Below, piece after piece: positions 6,182 through 15,460 of a DNA stretch of 20,352 nucleotides. Numbering within the stretch: the first letter of the stretch is position 1; each line of letters starts with the position of its first letter. The translations under genes were made by a program, and so were the position numbers. Source of the stretch: a virus (Duplodnaviria > Heunggongvirae > Uroviricota > Caudoviricetes); IMG/VR virus record IMGVR_UViG_2534681705_000008; one strand, written 5' to 3'. Below the pieces are notes generated by a model. It was not told the origin of the DNA. It was given only the letters and a program-made list of their open reading frames with translations, and ran no database searches.

Positions 6182-6694
6182 TCAGTTTGCTCCCTGTAAA
6201 CACCAGGCCATCTCCCGCGCACGGCGGTTATCCAGCCCCTGATTAAACACACCTTTTACATAAACCCAGCGCGGCAACTGTCGGCACGCATCCGCCCAGC
6301 GCCGCTGATTGAGCAATTTCACCAGCGTGGAGCTGCAGGCATTGCCCGTCCCCACGTTGAAGGCAAACGACACCGTAGCGTCATACACCTTCTGTGGTGG
6401 CAGTTGCTTCACACACCTTTCCAGTACCCGCTCCACACGCAGCACGTTGGAGATCAGCCCTTCTGCTGCCTGTCGTTCCGTGATTGTTTTGCCGGGAATG
6501 ACGCCCGATGTATTACCAATGCCGTCGGTCCAGACACCCGCGCTGCACTGATACGGCTGCAGACGACAGCCTTCGTAATCAGCAATCAGTTTCAGCCCCT
6601 CCACGGAGGTGTGAAGCTGCTGAAAACCCGGCAGCGTGGCAGCAATAGCCAGCACGGCCCCGACAAGGCAGCGTTTAACGATTGATGGATTCAT
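6182..6694 (-). CDS. Endolysin, GH24 lysozyme with an N-terminal SAR-like signal-anchor
   Basis: 170 aa; hydrophobic N-terminus (CLVGAVLAIAATLPGF) followed by a lysozyme core resembling P21-type SAR endolysins; ATG at 6694 confirmed. Confidence 0.9.
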   Translation of the reverse strand: MNPSIVKRCLVGAVLAIAATLPGFQQLHTSVEGLKLIADYEGCRLQPYQCSAGVWTDGIGNTSGVIPGKTITERQAAEGLISNVLRVERVLERCVKQLPPQKVYDATVSFAFNVGTGNACSSTLVKLLNQRRWADACRQLPRWVYVKGVFNQGLDNRRAREMAWCLQGAN

Positions 6695-6890
6695 AGTCCT
6701 CCCGCGAGATCTGCCCGTCGCGCAGAAGCTGGTAGGATTTGTGTTTGTAGTACCAGTTGATAGCCAGCATCAGTACACCAATCATCAGGCCGCCCAGCGT
6801 TGAGGCATCCTTGATGGACAAATCGCCCAGCCAGGCCAGCACGACGGCGATGCAATACGTGATAAAGGCGCTGATTCGCTCAAGCGTCAT
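6675..6890 (-). CDS. Holin (small two-TM membrane protein)
   Basis: 71 aa; two hydrophobic segments and a charged C-terminus; ATG at 6890 confirmed; position immediately upstream of the endolysin. Confidence 0.7.
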   Translation of the reverse strand: MTLERISAFITYCIAVVLAWLGDLSIKDASTLGGLMIGVLMLAINWYYKHKSYQLLRDGQISREDYESINR

Positions 6891-6893
6891 AAT

Positions 6894-7097
6894 TCAGTCC
6901 CATAGCTGGACGGTCTGCACGGTGGTGGTGGTCGGAATGTCCGGCAGCTCCACCTGCAGCCCGTGAGGTAAAAAGGGGCCGTATTCGGCAAGCCCCGGAT
7001 TTGCCTTCAGTACCTGCTCCGTGACCCCCTGCGTGCGCCCGTAATGACGCCAGCAAAGCGCGTCCACCGTGTCATACTGATGCGCACGCACTTTCAT
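6894..7097 (-). CDS. X: Tail protein X (gpX)
   Basis: 67 aa, same length and position as P2 gpX; ATG at 7097 confirmed. Confidence 0.8.
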   Translation of the reverse strand: MKVRAHQYDTVDALCWRHYGRTQGVTEQVLKANPGLAEYGPFLPHGLQVELPDIPTTTTVQTVQLWD

Positions 7098-9385: not shown

Positions 9386-10219
9386 TCAGCAATTGGTCAG
9401 AGTGTCAGCGGGGGCGTTACCGCCTGTTGCACGCTGGCGGTAGTCCTGGCGGCTGTCTTCATGACTCAGCTTGTCCACCAGTTCGTTAAAGGCGGTCTGC
9501 TGTGCCTGCAGGGCAGTCTCCAGCTCAGACAGACGTTCTTCCTGCTCAGACAGGGATTTTTCGGTGCGTGCGCTCAGGTTTTGCTGCTCAGTGGCGACCA
9601 GCTCCACGGCCTTATGCACATCAGAGAACCGGGCATCGTCGGACTGCTCTTTTTTGGTAAACAGCGCCGTGACACGGGCAAACAGGGACGGTTTGTCCTC
9701 CTGGATTTCTTCCAGTTCGATCACCGTTTCCTCTGCGGCGGTAAAGAGATTGGCGGGATTCTGCTTGCGGTTTGCCAGCGGGTTATGGGCTGCACTGGCG
9801 CTGAATGTCAGCATTTCCGTACCCAAACTGGCAGGGTCATCAGTGGCAGCCAGGCCGACCAGGTAGGCTTTGCCCGTATCAGCGAACTTCGGGCTGACTT
9901 CCATAGAGGTGAATAATTTCTGGCCTTTTTTCACCAATTCCACCAGGGACTCCGTTGGCTCAACGTCGGCATACAGCGCCATCTTGCCTGCCAGCGGGCC
10001 TTCCGTGATTTCTTCAGCAAACAGCGCCGTCACCTTGCCGTAACGGTTAAAGGTGCTGTCCGGGAGATAAGACTTGATGTGCTCAAGGTTAATCAGCGCG
10101 GTATACACCGCCGGGTTGTAGCTGGCTGCCATCTGTTCCAGCCATTCACGCTGGATTTCGCGTCCGTCGGTGGTGGCACCTTCCACCCCGATGCGAAAAC
10201 GCTTTGCTTTCACTGTCAT
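9386..10219 (-). CDS. O: Capsid scaffolding protein gpO
   Basis: 277 aa; ATG at 10219 confirmed; divergent from P, as in P2. Confidence 0.9.
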   Translation of the reverse strand: MTVKAKRFRIGVEGATTDGREIQREWLEQMAASYNPAVYTALINLEHIKSYLPDSTFNRYGKVTALFAEEITEGPLAGKMALYADVEPTESLVELVKKGQKLFTSMEVSPKFADTGKAYLVGLAATDDPASLGTEMLTFSASAAHNPLANRKQNPANLFTAAEETVIELEEIQEDKPSLFARVTALFTKKEQSDDARFSDVHKAVELVATEQQNLSARTEKSLSEQEERLSELETALQAQQTAFNELVDKLSHEDSRQDYRQRATGGNAPADTLTNC

Positions 10220-10361: not shown

Positions 10362-12128
10362 ATGAACACCACACTGACACCCGCAGATCTCGATCCCCGT
10401 CGGCAGGCCATGCTGCTGTACTTTCAGGGATACCGCGTAGCCCGCATTGCTGAAATGCTGGGCGAGAAAGTTGCAACCGTTCACAGCTGGAAGAAACGCG
10501 ACAAGTGGGGTGACTATGGGCCGCTGGATCAGATGCAGCTCACCACCGCCGCACGTTACTGCCAGCTCATTATGAAGGAGCACAAAGAAGGGAAAGATTT
10601 CAAAGAAATTGACCTGCTGGCGCGCCAGTCGGAGCGCCACGCGCGGATCGGCAAGTTTAACAATGGCGGCAACGAAGCCGACTTAAACCCTAACGTCGCC
10701 AACCGCAACAAAGGCCCGCGCCGTCAGCCGGAAAAGAATGTTTTCACCGATGAACAGATAGAGAAACTGGAAGAAATCTTCCATTCCTCCATGTTCAACT
10801 ACCAGCGCCACTGGTGGGAAGCCGGAAAAACCAACCGCATCCGCAACCTGCTGAAGTCACGCCAGATCGGCGCGACCTTTTACTTTGCCCGTGAAGCCCT
10901 GATTGACGCCCTGCTTACCGGACGTAACCAGATTTTCCTTTCTGCCAGTAAGGCACAGGCTCACGTCTTTAAGCAGTACATCATCGACTTCGCCAAAGAA
11001 GTCGAGGTGGAGCTGAAAGGCGATCCGATGGTGCTTCCTAACGGGGCCACGCTTTACTTCCTCGGCACCAATGCCCGCACGGCGCAGAGTTACCACGGCA
11101 ACCTGTATCTGGATGAATATTTCTGGATACCGAAATTCCAGGAGTTGCGCAAAGTGGCTTCCGGTATGGCTATTCACAAGAAATGGCGACAAACCTATTT
11201 TTCCACGCCATCCAGCCTGACCCACAGTGCTTATCCGTTCTGGTCCGGTGCGCTGTTCAACCGTGGACGCAACAAAGCTGACAAGGTGGACATCGACCTG
11301 TCCCACAGCAATCTGGCCCCCGGCCTACTGTGCGCAGACGGGCAATACCGCCAGATAGTCACCGTGGAAGATGCGGTGCGCGGCGGCTGTAACCTGTTCG
11401 ACCTCGACCAGCTGCGCATGGAGTACAGCCCGGACGAATACCAGAACCTGCTGATGTGCGAGTTCGTGGACGATCTCGCGTCCGTGTTCCCGCTCAGCGA
11501 ACTGCAGGCGTGCATGGTGGACAGCTGGGAAGTCTGGACCGACTTTCATGCACTGGCCCTGCGCCCGTTTGGCTGGCGCGAAGTGTGGATCGGTTATGAC
11601 CCGGCAAAAGGTACGCAGAACGGCGACAGTGCCGGATGCGTGGTGGTGGCTCCGCCAGCCGTGCCGGGTGGTAAGTTCCGCATTCTTGAGCGTCACCAGT
11701 GGCGCGGGATGGACTTCCGCGCCCAGGCTGACGCCATCAAAAAACTGACCGAACAGTATAACGTGACCTATATCGGTATCGACTCGACCGGCGTCGGTCA
11801 CGGGGTTTACGAGAACGTGAAAGCGTTTTTTCCTGCCGTCAGGGAGTTTGTCTATAACCCCAACGTTAAAAACGCCCTGGTACTCAAGGCCTACGACATT
11901 ATCAGCCACCGCCGTCTGGAGTTTGACGCCGGGCACACCGACATTGCGCAGTCATTTATGGCAATCCGTCGCGCTACCACTGCCAGTGGCAACCGCCCGA
12001 CCTATGAAGCCAGCCGCAGCGAAGAAGCCAGCCATGCCGATCTGGCCTGGGCAACAATGCACGCACTGTTTAACGAACCGCTGCAGGGCGAGTCCGCCAA
12101 TACCAGCAATATTGTGGAGATTTTTTGA
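10362..12128 (+). CDS. P: Terminase ATPase (large) subunit gpP
   Basis: 588 aa; P2 gpP-like; ATG at 10362; stop overlaps the Q start (TGATG). Confidence 0.95.
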   Translation: MNTTLTPADLDPRRQAMLLYFQGYRVARIAEMLGEKVATVHSWKKRDKWGDYGPLDQMQLTTAARYCQLIMKEHKEGKDFKEIDLLARQSERHARIGKFNNGGNEADLNPNVANRNKGPRRQPEKNVFTDEQIEKLEEIFHSSMFNYQRHWWEAGKTNRIRNLLKSRQIGATFYFAREALIDALLTGRNQIFLSASKAQAHVFKQYIIDFAKEVEVELKGDPMVLPNGATLYFLGTNARTAQSYHGNLYLDEYFWIPKFQELRKVASGMAIHKKWRQTYFSTPSSLTHSAYPFWSGALFNRGRNKADKVDIDLSHSNLAPGLLCADGQYRQIVTVEDAVRGGCNLFDLDQLRMEYSPDEYQNLLMCEFVDDLASVFPLSELQACMVDSWEVWTDFHALALRPFGWREVWIGYDPAKGTQNGDSAGCVVVAPPAVPGGKFRILERHQWRGMDFRAQADAIKKLTEQYNVTYIGIDSTGVGHGVYENVKAFFPAVREFVYNPNVKNALVLKAYDIISHRRLEFDAGHTDIAQSFMAIRRATTASGNRPTYEASRSEEASHADLAWATMHALFNEPLQGESANTSNIVEIF

Positions 12129-13165
12129 TGGGAAAGAGTAAGAAGAACCGCGCTGCGTCGACGAAACAGATCCAGCATAAAAGCCAGACTTCAGCCGAAG
12201 CATTCAGCTTCGGTGATCCCGTTCCTGTTCTGGACCGCCGCGAACTGCTGGACTATGTGGAATGCGTACAGATGGATCGTTGGTACGAGCCGCCTGTGAG
12301 TTTCGACGGACTGGCGCGAACCTTCCGCGCCGCCGTGCATCACAGCTCACCGATTGCAGTGAAGTGCAACATTCTGACCAGCACCTACATCCCTCACCCG
12401 CTGCTCAGCCAGCAGGCTTTTTCGCGTTTTGTACAGGACTATCTGGTTTTTGGTAACGCCTACCTGGAGAAACGCACGAACCGCTTCGGTGAAGTTATCG
12501 CCCTTGAGCCTGCACTGGCAAAATACACCCGACGCGGGTTAGACCTTGATACCTACTGGTTTGTGCAATACGGCATGACTACACAGCCGTATCAGTTCAC
12601 GAAAGGCAACATTTTTCATCTGATGGAACCGGACATCAACCAGGAGATCTACGGCCTGCCTGGTTATCTTTCTGCCATTCCGTCAGCCCTGCTCAACGAG
12701 TCCGCCACGCTGTTCCGTCGAAAGTATTACATTAACGGCAGTCATGCAGGCTTCATCATGTACATGACCGACGCCGCGCAGAACCAGGAGGATGTAAACA
12801 ACCTCCGTAACGCGATGAAAAGCGCCAAAGGACCAGGTAACTTCCGCAATCTGTTTATGTACTCGCCTAACGGCAAAAAGGACGGACTTCAGATCATCCC
12901 ATTGTCAGAAGTCGCGGCGAAGGATGAGTTTCTGAATATCAAAAATGTCAGCCGCGATGACATGATGGCAGCGCACCGTGTGCCACCGCAAATGATGGGG
13001 ATTATGCCGAATAATGTTGGGGGGTTTGGGGATGTGGAGAAGGCAAGCCGTGTATTCGTCCGAAATGAGCTAATGCCACTACAAAAGCGATTACAGGAGA
13101 TGAATGATTGGCTTGGCAAGGAGGCGATACGGTTTGATACCTACTCGCTAGATATAGCCCCATAA
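12128..13165 (+). CDS. Q: Portal vertex protein gpQ
   Basis: The track start at 12125 is TTG; the ATG at 12128 gives 345 aa (MGKSKKNRA...); P2 gpQ-like. Confidence 0.95.
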   Translation: MGKSKKNRAASTKQIQHKSQTSAEAFSFGDPVPVLDRRELLDYVECVQMDRWYEPPVSFDGLARTFRAAVHHSSPIAVKCNILTSTYIPHPLLSQQAFSRFVQDYLVFGNAYLEKRTNRFGEVIALEPALAKYTRRGLDLDTYWFVQYGMTTQPYQFTKGNIFHLMEPDINQEIYGLPGYLSAIPSALLNESATLFRRKYYINGSHAGFIMYMTDAAQNQEDVNNLRNAMKSAKGPGNFRNLFMYSPNGKKDGLQIIPLSEVAAKDEFLNIKNVSRDDMMAAHRVPPQMMGIMPNNVGGFGDVEKASRVFVRNELMPLQKRLQEMNDWLGKEAIRFDTYSLDIAP

Positions 13166-13169
13166 TAAG

Positions 13170-13193
13170 AAAAGCCACCGTTTGGTGGCTTTT
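13170..13193. terminator. Bidirectional intrinsic terminator hairpin between convergent Q and the HipS-HIRAN gene
   Basis: Perfect 10-bp inverted repeat AAAAGCCACC-gttt-GGTGGCTTTT, with A-run and T-run flanks usable on either strand. Confidence 0.6.
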
Positions 13194-13199
13194 CTTCAT

Positions 13200-13940
13200 T
13201 TACTCAATAGGTTCAAACTCATCTTGAGGAATCAGCGTCGATTGACAGGCTTGGCTTAGTACCCCTGATAATTTACATAATAACCGATAGTTATGAGGAG
13301 CATCATCGCTAATCTTTTCGACCGTTAAAGTGATTGATTTTGGATCATCCAATAACATCTTCTTGATGTCATTACTTAAATACCTAGGGCAGTAACCAAC
13401 GATTTCAGCTGGTTTATCTGCACGAACGACAACAGCATCCCCATCGTATTCATTTTGAAGATCCAAGCAAAGACGCAAAATTTGCCCCGGTTTCAATTCA
13501 GATACACGAGCATTAGCTAAGCTATTCAAGTAACCAAGTCCATGTAAGAAGAAAAAATGCTCAAAGTTACCATCAGAATCAAAATCAATTTTTTTGAAAA
13601 TCTGCAGCTGATCAGTGCTTCGTAAGCCTCCCGAGCGAGCAAGAATATCGATAGGATTTACCTTATCTTCTTCAAATCCAAGCCATTTAATGAAACTCGG
13701 ATACTCTGGACGTCTCGGTGATAAAAGGCGATTTTTAAAAAGAGGAAACAATTCTTCCGATACATAAGTTTCACGAACATCACTCATGCCGCTAAACTTT
13801 GTAAATTTAGAAGATTTAAGAGCACCTTTGGTATACCTGAAAACATACCCCGATTTGCGCTCTTGCAAGTTACCAACAACATGCCAGTCTCTGGTATCTG
13901 GTGCCTGCCATGCGACGTAAACGGAGTTTGTATTAGTCAT
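13200..13940 (-). CDS. HipS-like (HipA N-subdomain-like) domain fused to a C-terminal HIRAN domain; putative antitoxin/sensor partner of the adjacent kinase
   Basis: 246 aa. N-terminal ~115 aa resemble the HipA N-terminal/HipS fold (VGNLQERKSGYVFRY..., ELFPLFKNRLLSP..., IDILARSGG). C-terminal ~90 aa carry HIRAN-like motifs (LHGLGYLNS; LQNEYDGDAVVV resembling NPYDxNAIxV; IVGYCPRYLSNDIKKML). ATG at 13940 overlaps the kinase stop (ATGA). Confidence 0.6.
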   Translation of the reverse strand: MTNTNSVYVAWQAPDTRDWHVVGNLQERKSGYVFRYTKGALKSSKFTKFSGMSDVRETYVSEELFPLFKNRLLSPRRPEYPSFIKWLGFEEDKVNPIDILARSGGLRSTDQLQIFKKIDFDSDGNFEHFFFLHGLGYLNSLANARVSELKPGQILRLCLDLQNEYDGDAVVVRADKPAEIVGYCPRYLSNDIKKMLLDDPKSITLTVEKISDDAPHNYRLLCKLSGVLSQACQSTLIPQDEFEPIE

Positions 13941-14851
13941 TCTAGTAACCTTCTGCGATTTTCCATTACCATTAACGTTGCAAATCTACGTGCACTGTCG
14001 GATATACACGATGAAGGCACTTGGTTAAACACATCTGTAATGGAATCTTCTGTTAAAACGCTCAACTTACCTAACCAATGGTCGCGAGCGGCAACTCTCC
14101 CTTCAACTGCATGTTGAAATGCTTCAACAGTCAGCAAGGGCTTTTTATCAGTTTTTGCTTTGAATAGCTCAGAGCGAGCTTTTCTTACAAAACATGGGAT
14201 TTGTCGATTTTTATCTTTAGTATTAAGCCGTTCGTTACGCTCATCATCTAACATCTCCCTTCCTAAACTAGCGGCATGATCGTATGTTGGACACAAAAAC
14301 TGCTCACCAGTTTCATTGTTAAGCATGATTGCCCAATTTTCATGGTGGCGATCTTGATTACTCACAAGTGCATCGAGCATCAAATATCCACAAAATACAT
14401 CTGCTGCATTTAGCCCGGTTAGATCATATACACTCGGAGGAGGCTTGATAGATTCCCTATCTAAACAACCCAAGACCCTTGTGACAGTGTGTTCTCTGAC
14501 CCTTACCGGCTTTTCCCCGGCTTGTAAAGGCCCAGGATAATCGAATGTCGAACTGTGAAGCACTTCATTTCCCATTACCATCCGGAAACCAGATGGAATG
14601 ATATTCTGAGTCACCACACCGAATCGACCATTGTATCGCGCCAAATCATAGCTAGCATGTGGAATGTTAAGCAAATGACATAACTCAGCAGCACACTTTT
14701 CAGACCAATGCTCGCCAGTACCTGGCCTAGAGTACTTAAACAACTGCAAATTTACAGTGTCATCGGAGAAATAGAACCAAAACTTCTCTTTGGTTCCTAA
14801 CTGTTCAAGATCGTTAGCTACGGGGCTAAGCTCTACCAATTGGTATGGCAT
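13937..14851 (-). CDS. HipT/HipA-like Ser/Thr kinase core (HipA_C superfamily), lacking the HipA N-terminal subdomain
   Basis: 304 aa. Gly-rich loop GTKEKF (res 19-24, resembling the HipA/HipT GxQxK loop), catalytic motif SNQDRHHENW (res 164-173, resembling GxxDxHxKN), and Mg-binding-type YD in CPTYDHAASLG (res 190-191). ATG at 14851 confirmed. Confidence 0.7.
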   Translation of the reverse strand: MPYQLVELSPVANDLEQLGTKEKFWFYFSDDTVNLQLFKYSRPGTGEHWSEKCAAELCHLLNIPHASYDLARYNGRFGVVTQNIIPSGFRMVMGNEVLHSSTFDYPGPLQAGEKPVRVREHTVTRVLGCLDRESIKPPPSVYDLTGLNAADVFCGYLMLDALVSNQDRHHENWAIMLNNETGEQFLCPTYDHAASLGREMLDDERNERLNTKDKNRQIPCFVRKARSELFKAKTDKKPLLTVEAFQHAVEGRVAARDHWLGKLSVLTEDSITDVFNQVPSSCISDSARRFATLMVMENRRRLLE

Positions 14852-14944
14852 CTGACATCCCTGTTTAGCGGATTATGAATAAGTTAGGTTCCATTTTATC
14901 CAAACATTGTCAAATACCCTAAGATTTATTAGATGATAGAGCGA

Positions 14945-14964
14945 TACTGTATGTATGTCCAGCA
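14945..14964. promoter_or_regulatory. LexA-box-like sequence (TACTGTATGTATGTCCAGCA; CTG-N10-CAG spacing retained) about 95 bp upstream of the kinase operon
   Basis: About 16/20 match to the E. coli SOS-box consensus TACTGTATATATATACAGTA, with CTG and CAG correctly spaced; right half-site is CCAG rather than ACAG. Confidence 0.3.
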
Positions 14965-15003
14965 ATCAAATCAATATATAACTCTTATATGGCTTAACGC
15001 GCG

Positions 15004-15022
15004 CTCGTATCCCCGCCACGCC
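15004..15022 (-). other. Candidate cos (cohesive-end) site: GGCGTGGCGGGGA... on the minus strand
   Basis: The 13-mer GGCGTGGCGGGGA matches the start of the P2/186 19-nt cohesive end as I recall it (P2 GGCGAGGCGGGGAAAGCAC); the location between the A/tum side and Q is where cos is expected. Confidence 0.5.
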
Positions 15023-15065: not shown

Positions 15066-15093
15066 GCAAAAGCCCGCCAGTTCTGGCGGGCCT
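15066..15093 (-). terminator. Intrinsic terminator of the tum/DinI-like operon
   Basis: GC-rich 9-bp stem GCCCGCCAG-tt-CTGGCGGGC, followed on the minus strand by TTTT. Confidence 0.55.
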
Positions 15094-15226: not shown

Positions 15227-15460
15227 TTAATGCAGCCAGCTGTCGTCTTCCCACACCTTCTGCATAATTTTCATCACTTGTTTTCTTTCTTCGTCCAGTT
15301 GCAGTCCGGTTAGTTCCACACCGTTAGAGCTACCTTTGCGAATGCGAATTACCGTTTTGGGATACAGGGGGCGCAGATTGCGGTAAAGCTCGGATTCAAG
15401 GGCGTCCAGGGTAGACTGGCTAATCTTCTGCTCTTTATCGATCATTATTTCAATGCGCAT
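15227..15460 (-). CDS. DinI-family protein (SOS-inducible; 186 Tum C-terminal-domain-like)
   Basis: 77 aa from the ATG at 15460 (MRIEIMIDKEQ...KVWEDDSWLH), similar to E. coli DinI; SD GAGGTG upstream; the track ORF is extended to 15532. Confidence 0.8.
   Translation of the reverse strand: MRIEIMIDKEQKISQSTLDALESELYRNLRPLYPKTVIRIRKGSSNGVELTGLQLDEERKQVMKIMQKVWEDDSWLH

Follow-up and report, generated by a model that had tools for sequence, protein, structure and literature searches.

[quoted passage not shown] It was proposed there that the HIRAN domain recognises DNA ends, whether these belong to an invading phage or to intermediates of replication, and that end recognition would activate the HipI kinase and lead to abortive infection. 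The idea of DNA-end gating for hipIN has therefore been in print since 2021, and the fusion family was already known. The authors also noted that short Hip kinases carry a Gly-rich loop near the N terminus and remarked that bacterial HIRAN domains, which lack the Phe142 of HLTF, may prefer single-stranded DNA (PMC8262856).

In the related HipBST system, HipS neutralises the kinase HipT through contacts with the Gly-rich loop, docking in the manner of N-subdomain 1 of HipA (PMC10627512). In HipAD/DS-6 the HipA-family kinase has another kind of partner, and this system provides kinase-dependent phage defence (PMC13092281, DefensePredictor 2026), and a 2025 NAR paper found that HipA-HIRAN clusters adjoin diDNase genes and left their function open. 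The gpA-gpQ interval of P2 is a defence hotspot in which the characterised cargo is anti-phage (Rousset et al. 2022, PMC9122126); neither HipA nor HIRAN appears in the main text of that paper. Our search of the literature, which covered subscription papers incompletely, found no experiments on hipIN or HipL (toxicity, neutralisation, DNA binding or defence).

Results

A two-gene island next to the portal gene of a P2-like prophage

The window, by which we mean the whole stretch of DNA analysed (20,352 nucleotides), belongs to a P2-like prophage, and a stretch of E. coli chromosome is identical to it. The recognisable P2-like genes include scaffold O (9386-10219, minus strand), the terminase (10362-12128, plus strand), portal Q (12125-13165, plus strand) and the replication endonuclease gpA (15813-18236, minus strand), and a DinI-like gene is located at 15227-15460 on the minus strand (Pfam DinI, E 1.3e-22). 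An island of low GC content, delimited by composition and by nucleotide similarity, occupies positions 13166 to 14990; its GC fraction is 0.41 over 1.8 kb, compared with 0.53-0.60 in the flanks, and it holds only two genes, both on the minus strand, with ORFs of 304 and 246 aa. These are hipI (13937..14851, RefSeq WP_001146828.1) and hipN (13200..13940, RefSeq WP_000185756.1). Because nucleotide similarity to sequenced P2-like phages restarts only from about position 14990, we regard the hipI-hipN pair as variable cargo. The exact island, adjoining the portal gene, was found in 21 of 5,426 complete E. coli genomes.

The stop codon of hipI and the start codon of hipN overlap in an ATGA (13937..13940, minus strand), as read from the sequence, and the two genes are translationally coupled through this overlap. 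Upstream of hipI, a promoter-like site, TGGACA-17-TATCAT (14933..14961, minus strand), matches the consensus at 10 of 12 positions, although it is weak evidence for a promoter, as shuffled sequence contains more such sites than the region does. At the other end of the island, between the convergent hipN and portal genes, a palindromic hairpin, AAAAGCCACC-GTTT-GGTGGCTTTT (13170..13193), has a perfect stem followed by a T-run. The window contains it once, against 0 matches expected by chance, and it is probably a bidirectional terminator for hipN and the portal gene.

Outside the hipIN module, the sequence GGCGTGGCGGGGA (15010..15022, minus strand) was a unique match in our search, and we take it to resemble the start of the cohesive end of 186/P2. 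Should this sequence be cos, hipIN would sit at one extreme end of the packaged genome, with cos on one side and the portal gene on the other.

Several features of the surroundings were recorded as well. The DinI-like product is 77 aa long in RefSeq and 101 aa in the longest ORF, and its gene is followed by a terminator-like GC-rich hairpin, GGCCCGCCAG-AA-CTGGCGGGC, with a T-run (15067-15092, minus strand). The dinI/gpA side forms a second, separate cargo site of the prophage. Two sibling P2-like viral contigs with identical hipIN, L017 and L009, have extra cargo between dinI and cos: in L017 (806-2575) this cargo encodes a 288-aa protein with a sub-threshold match to Abi_C (E 0.0017) as well as a protein of 217 aa whose PADLOC match is HEPN-like and weak (E 1.1e-5), and in L009 (2151-2576) a 141-aa protein with no family match and an N terminus that by eye is signal-peptide-like. 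A gene annotated in RefSeq as a DNA adenine methylase (18225-19082, minus strand) overlaps the end of the replication endonuclease gene and is followed by DUF3850 and TraR/DksA-family genes. Past the end of the window, the same prophage carries genes for GmrSD restriction endonuclease-domain and HEPN-domain proteins after the CI repressor gene (contig L001, 18474-20201), and these resemble a second defence locus.

HipI is a short HipA-family kinase

HipI is a Ser/Thr kinase of the HipA family that lacks N-subdomain 1, in accordance with the kinase neighbour that the original prediction had supposed. It matches the PADLOC profile PDC-M03A nearly end to end (E 2.1e-122), and its match to Pfam HipA_C is sub-threshold (E 3.6e-4). 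The AlphaFold2 model has a pLDDT of 83.8, and the closest structural match in Foldseek was CtkA (E 5.7e-10, TMt 0.72). CtkA of H. pylori, itself a short kinase of the HipA family, is active without the N-subdomain. It was followed in the search by HipA, with an E value of about 1e-6 and a TMt of only about 0.4, which is low because HipA is approximately 110 residues longer, and then by the Legionella HipT structures (7wcf/8ezr/7vkb).

Three of the four core kinase motifs named by Gerdes et al., of which the fourth is the activation loop, were compared across 36 homologues. The Gly-rich loop G19-T-K-E-K23 (14783..14797, minus strand) is invariant and stands near the N terminus, as described for short Hip kinases (PMC8262856). 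The catalytic motif D167-R-H-H-E-N172 (14336..14353, minus strand) is likewise invariant and aligns with the catalytic segment of CtkA, and D191 (14279..14281, minus strand), an invariant residue in the motif YDHAAS, is a putative Mg-binding residue by its likeness to the known HipA motif. The Ser-x-Ser motif was not found in the Gly-rich loop of HipI, which reads D14-L-E-Q-L-G-T-K-E-K; T20 in this loop is invariant among the 36 homologues. Overall, HipI is apparently an active kinase core without the subdomain that HipN resembles.

HipN combines a HipS-like fold with a HIRAN domain

The hipN ORF stands at exactly the positions originally given, begins with ATG and encodes 246 aa, and its translation contains every peptide quoted in that prediction. 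A chance or mis-called ORF was ruled out by conservation of the sequence in more than 1,600 clusters. The RefSeq product name of hipN is 'HIRAN domain-containing protein', and the product matches PADLOC PDC-M03B nearly end to end (E 6.8e-93). The AlphaFold2 model has a pLDDT of 87.4 and a pTM of 0.82.

The N-terminal domain (residues ~5-115, 13596..13928, minus strand) has the predicted fold of HipA N-subdomain 1. The match of the N-terminal half to Pfam Couple_hipA is below threshold (E 0.014), and when the HipN family was compared with E. coli HipA by hhalign, the match was in the right place but weak (E 0.074), so that on sequence alone the assignment would be doubtful. Searches of PDB sequences, both single-sequence and profile, returned nothing significant for HipN or HipI; only fold comparison succeeded. 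The HipS-like domain that had been predicted from peptide signatures is thus borne out by the predicted structure and fold comparison. For the C-terminal domain (residues ~125-228, 13257..13568, minus strand), Pfam HIRAN (PF08797) matched residues 127-228 with an E value of 1e-13 (51.3 bits, cutoff 24.7), and Foldseek on the HipN model concurs; profile search and predicted structure, the two checks by which the original HIRAN assignment might have fallen, both uphold it. We conclude from the models that HipN is a HipS/HipA N-subdomain 1 fold fused to a HIRAN fold.

Conservation in HipN was examined in an alignment of 44 homologues. A loop at the junction of both domains, S103-Q113 (SGGLRSTDQLQ, 13602..13634, minus strand), was delimited by sequence conservation; together with the preceding residue it contains the invariant positions R102, G104, R107, T109, D110 and Q113, and residues 106-109 within it have a pLDDT below 50. 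This loop may be a partner-contact or phospho-acceptor element. No equivalent of the HipS Trp65 wedge was identified in HipN, where the expected region holds an invariant R77-P78-E79-Y80. The mean pairwise identity over 32 cognate pairs is 70.6% for the HipS-like domain, 63.4% for the kinase and 58.8% for the HIRAN domain. For a supposed antitoxin, it is unusual that its HipS-like domain should be better conserved than the kinase. The divergence of HipN correlates with that of the kinase (r 0.85).

The C-terminal tail of HipN (residues 229-246, 13203-13256) has an identity of only 23.6% over the 32 cognate pairs. It ends in a conserved acidic-aromatic motif, in which a nearly invariant E241 is followed by F or Y, and this motif recalls the C-terminal Trp of HipB, which docks on HipA. 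In public sources some HipN homologues (P0013, P0059, P0076 and P0107) carry the name 'restriction endonuclease'. We rejected this function for HipN, as a nuclease domain is absent by Pfam, NCBIfam and fold search, and the name looks like a propagated annotation error.

The 3'-OH pocket of the HIRAN domain

In HLTF, the last nucleotide of the 3' end is held by residues of the HIRAN pocket, through stacking and through hydrogen bonds to its 3'-OH, and the HIRAN domains of HLTF and Rad5 recruit catalytic modules to the 3' ends at forks. The HLTF HIRAN sequence was checked against PDB chains before the HipN family was aligned to it. Local hhalign paired Q162, N163, Y165, D166 and R186 of HipN with N90, N91, Y93, D94 and K113 of HLTF, respectively. 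The pairing of Y137 with Y72 was obtained only in a forced global alignment and has low confidence. In the HipN family, N163, D166 and R186 are invariant, and positions 165 and 137 are occupied by an aromatic residue or His. By these pairings, the residues with which HLTF holds a DNA 3'-OH end are retained in HipN. Phe142 in the HLTF 'NAF' motif had no clear equivalent in the alignment of the family to HLTF, in line with what Gerdes et al. noted for bacterial HIRAN domains (PMC8262856).

Family size, pairing and spread

A full HMMER search for relatives of HipN yielded representatives of 1,635 clusters (50% identity) at E <= 1e-3, with 1,016 at E <= 1e-10 and 315 at E <= 1e-30. Almost all of the best 150 of the 1,635 are 235-270 aa long and match over both domains, and no single-chain fusion of the HipL type was present among these 150. 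Full-length conservation in 1,635 representatives places the two-domain architecture far beyond chance. The fusion is, on the other hand, not the unusual combination that had been claimed for it, given its naming in 2021 (PMC8262856), its inclusion in PADLOC as PDC-M03 and the number of these clusters.

A kinase gene stands directly upstream of hipN, at a gap of 0-20 nt, in all 54 distinct IMG/VR viral loci (54/54); 36 of these loci adjoin a P2-type portal gene and the other 18 have other viral contexts. Many contigs are common to the HipN and kinase match lists. Elsewhere, hipIN was found between the integrase and an ImmA/XRE module in the C. difficile phage phiCDKH02, beside the integrase in Vinavirales elements of Vibrio cyclitrophicus, in a V. 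parahaemolyticus prophage, where it is a moron, and in an integrase islet of Stutzerimonas. Thus, temperate phages of both Proteobacteria and Firmicutes carry hipIN repeatedly, as do integrase-bearing islands. In the Stutzerimonas loci (L003-L005; in L004 at 6484-7008), genes for HTH_3 and PhdYeFM antitoxin-family proteins immediately precede hipIN in the same orientation, and these could be a separate toxin-antitoxin remnant or a regulator of hipIN.

Discussion

We favour, at a probability of roughly one half, the reading that hipIN is a cargo defence module in which HipN holds HipI inactive until the HIRAN domain binds DNA ends. The HipS-like domain would dock on HipI at the site that N-subdomain 1 occupies in HipA and, by analogy with HipS and HipT, would keep the Gly-rich loop inactive. 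A superinfecting phage would yield free single-stranded DNA or recessed 3' ends, supplied by its linear genome on injection, by intermediates of replication or by host DNA that has been degraded, and binding of these 3' ends by the HIRAN domain would relieve the inhibition of HipI allosterically. The freed kinase would then phosphorylate an essential host factor, which by analogy with HipA and HipT may be an aminoacyl-tRNA synthetase, and translation would stop and the infection would abort. Such gating is consistent with the retained 3'-OH pocket, the translational coupling, the strict pairing with the kinase and the location in a prophage hotspot. A role in defence is also favoured by the low GC of the island, the integrases and lysogeny modules beside hipIN elsewhere, the PADLOC listing and the precedents of HipS with HipT and of HipAD/DS-6.

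Several difficulties arise with this scheme. HipN is encoded downstream of the toxin and is the more conserved of the two, both of which are atypical for a labile antitoxin and argue against inhibition; moreover, because the same subdomain in HipA belongs to an active kinase, HipN could activate HipI and not inhibit it. The sensing step faces the objection that lytic replication of the prophage itself and cos cutting also make DNA ends, which might trigger the module. The failure to find a counterpart of HipS Trp65 and the weakness of the promoter-like site also count against it. Three observations suggest that HipN regulates the kinase allosterically, as a subunit, and is not a labile antitoxin of the classical kind: hipN is downstream of hipI and coupled to it, its HipS-like domain is better conserved than the kinase or the HIRAN domain, and HipL exists as a single chain. 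The same three observations also keep alive the view that HipN is an activating, DNA-end-dependent subunit.

In its general form, the latter view holds that HipN is an obligate activating subunit that completes HipI into a HipA-like enzyme, and that the HIRAN domain makes its activity dependent on DNA ends or tethers it; HipI alone would be inactive and not toxic, with a logic that resembles that of Ku with DNA-PKcs. N-subdomain 1 is integral to the active HipA kinase and HipS docks likewise, yet the sole HipS tested by experiment is inhibitory (PMC10627512), and the solved structure of CtkA, the closest structural match of HipI, shows no separate N-subdomain. The position of the HipS-like domain as the most conserved part of hipIN fits an activator well, as does the coupling of the downstream hipN to hipI, which favours 1:1 synthesis. 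The confident pTM of 0.82 suggests in addition that HipN is a single rigid unit made up of both domains, and in the single-chain HipL fusions a 'labile antitoxin' would be unable to leave (PMC8262856). Weighing both sides, we consider this alternative unlikely.

A more specific proposal, for which we see a rather small chance, is that HipI and HipN constitute a split, DNA-end-activated kinase with HipN as the required sensor and not as an antitoxin. In this proposal a HipA/PI3K-like kinase fold and a HIRAN reader of 3' ends would act together and fire only at foreign DNA ends, as a phage or bacterial counterpart of Ku/DNA-PKcs. It is favoured by how unusually conserved the HipS-like domain is, the coupled gene order and the single-chain HipL, and, if true, it would represent a bacterial or phage version of the Ku/DNA-PKcs logic.

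It is similarly doubtful that hipIN is an ordinary toxin-antitoxin or addiction module serving prophage stability or persistence, with the HIRAN domain engaged in autoregulation or in the host DNA-damage response. As the operon encodes no HTH protein, HipN is its only candidate DNA binder for autoregulation, and a DinI-like SOS modulator is close by. However, we know of no characterised HIRAN domain that binds operator-type sequences. Although the HipA family is the archetype of persistence toxins in toxin-antitoxin systems (PMC8262856, PMC10627512), those HIRAN domains that have been characterised bind DNA ends (PMC8262856), and the 3'-OH pocket is conserved in HipN. The pair also departs from canonical type II systems in that the putative antitoxin is encoded downstream, has a kinase-binding domain more conserved than the kinase (70.6% versus 63.4% identity) and has no HTH or RHH domain. 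Furthermore, hipIN resides in a hotspot whose characterised cargo is anti-phage (PMC9122126), and unrelated temperate phages carry it repeatedly as a moron.

Finally, the HIRAN domain might recruit HipI to DNA ends, as the domains of Rad5 and HLTF bring catalytic modules to 3' ends at forks, so that it phosphorylates proteins of replication or recombination there, whether from the phage or from the host; DNA metabolism of the phage would then be blocked directly, in place of a shutdown of translation. The identified targets of HipA-family kinases, however, are all aminoacyl-tRNA synthetases (Table 1 of PMC8262856), and nothing in the sequence indicates a particular substrate; we hold this to be the least probable reading of all.

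If the published hypothesis is true, hipIN would be an immune sensor that turns a generic sign of infection, free DNA 3' ends, into protein phosphorylation, and HIRAN, best known from the eukaryotic fork remodellers HLTF and Rad5, would be linked to bacterial abortive infection. The hipIN of the window is a convenient test case, being a compact 1.8-kb, two-gene E. coli operon with a promoter-like site and a terminator, in a hotspot where other cargo has repeatedly proved defensive. As a typical member of its family, its value lies in its testability and not in newness.

Comparison with known systems

The HIRAN domain of HipN has approximately 15-17% sequence identity to those of HLTF and Rad5, and its partner is a kinase-binding domain, whereas in HLTF/Rad5 the partners are a SWI/SNF helicase and a RING ligase. 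Compared with HipBST (HipB, HipS and HipT of E. coli O127:H6), hipIN has no HipB HTH gene and the gene order is reversed, with the kinase first, and these two differences rule out hipIN as a HipBST variant. In addition, the HipS-like unit of hipIN bears an extra HIRAN domain, the Gly-rich loop of HipI reads EQLGTKEK without the Ser-x-Ser autophosphorylation motif of the HipBST kinase, and HipI is closest in structure to CtkA and not to the HipT of HipBST.

HipAD/DS-6, reportedly the work of Brenes and Laub (2025), resembles hipIN as a prophage-associated HipA-family kinase with a partner other than HipB. The partner carries DUF3037 and DUF1829 in HipAD/DS-6, and HipS-like and HIRAN domains in hipIN, and HipAD/DS-6 has been validated by experiment, whereas hipIN is a candidate only. 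HipL contains the same three modules as hipIN but is a monocistronic single polypeptide, while hipIN distributes them between two genes that overlap. The adjacent hipI and hipN match both profiles of the PADLOC candidate PDC-M03, in which A is the HipA-like kinase and B the HIRAN protein; PDC-M03 is a PADLOC prediction derived from embedding within defence systems, not a validated defence system.

The closest likeness is to the hipIN of Gerdes et al. The protein encoded by hipN has the HipS-like N-terminal domain, the C-terminal HIRAN domain and the short kinase directly upstream by which HipN was defined there, and the gene order, kinase and then HipN, is the same. At 304 aa, HipI is within the 279-321 aa range of the short kinases, and it shares with them the lack of N-subdomain 1, the N-terminal Gly-rich loop and, for the three motifs compared, an intact core; the HIRAN domain has no Phe at the HLTF NAF position in either case. 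Nothing structural differs between the published modules and the pair in the window. Beyond the 2021 set, our analysis shows that the family is much larger, with 1,635 clusters at 50% identity, and that it is strongly phage-borne.
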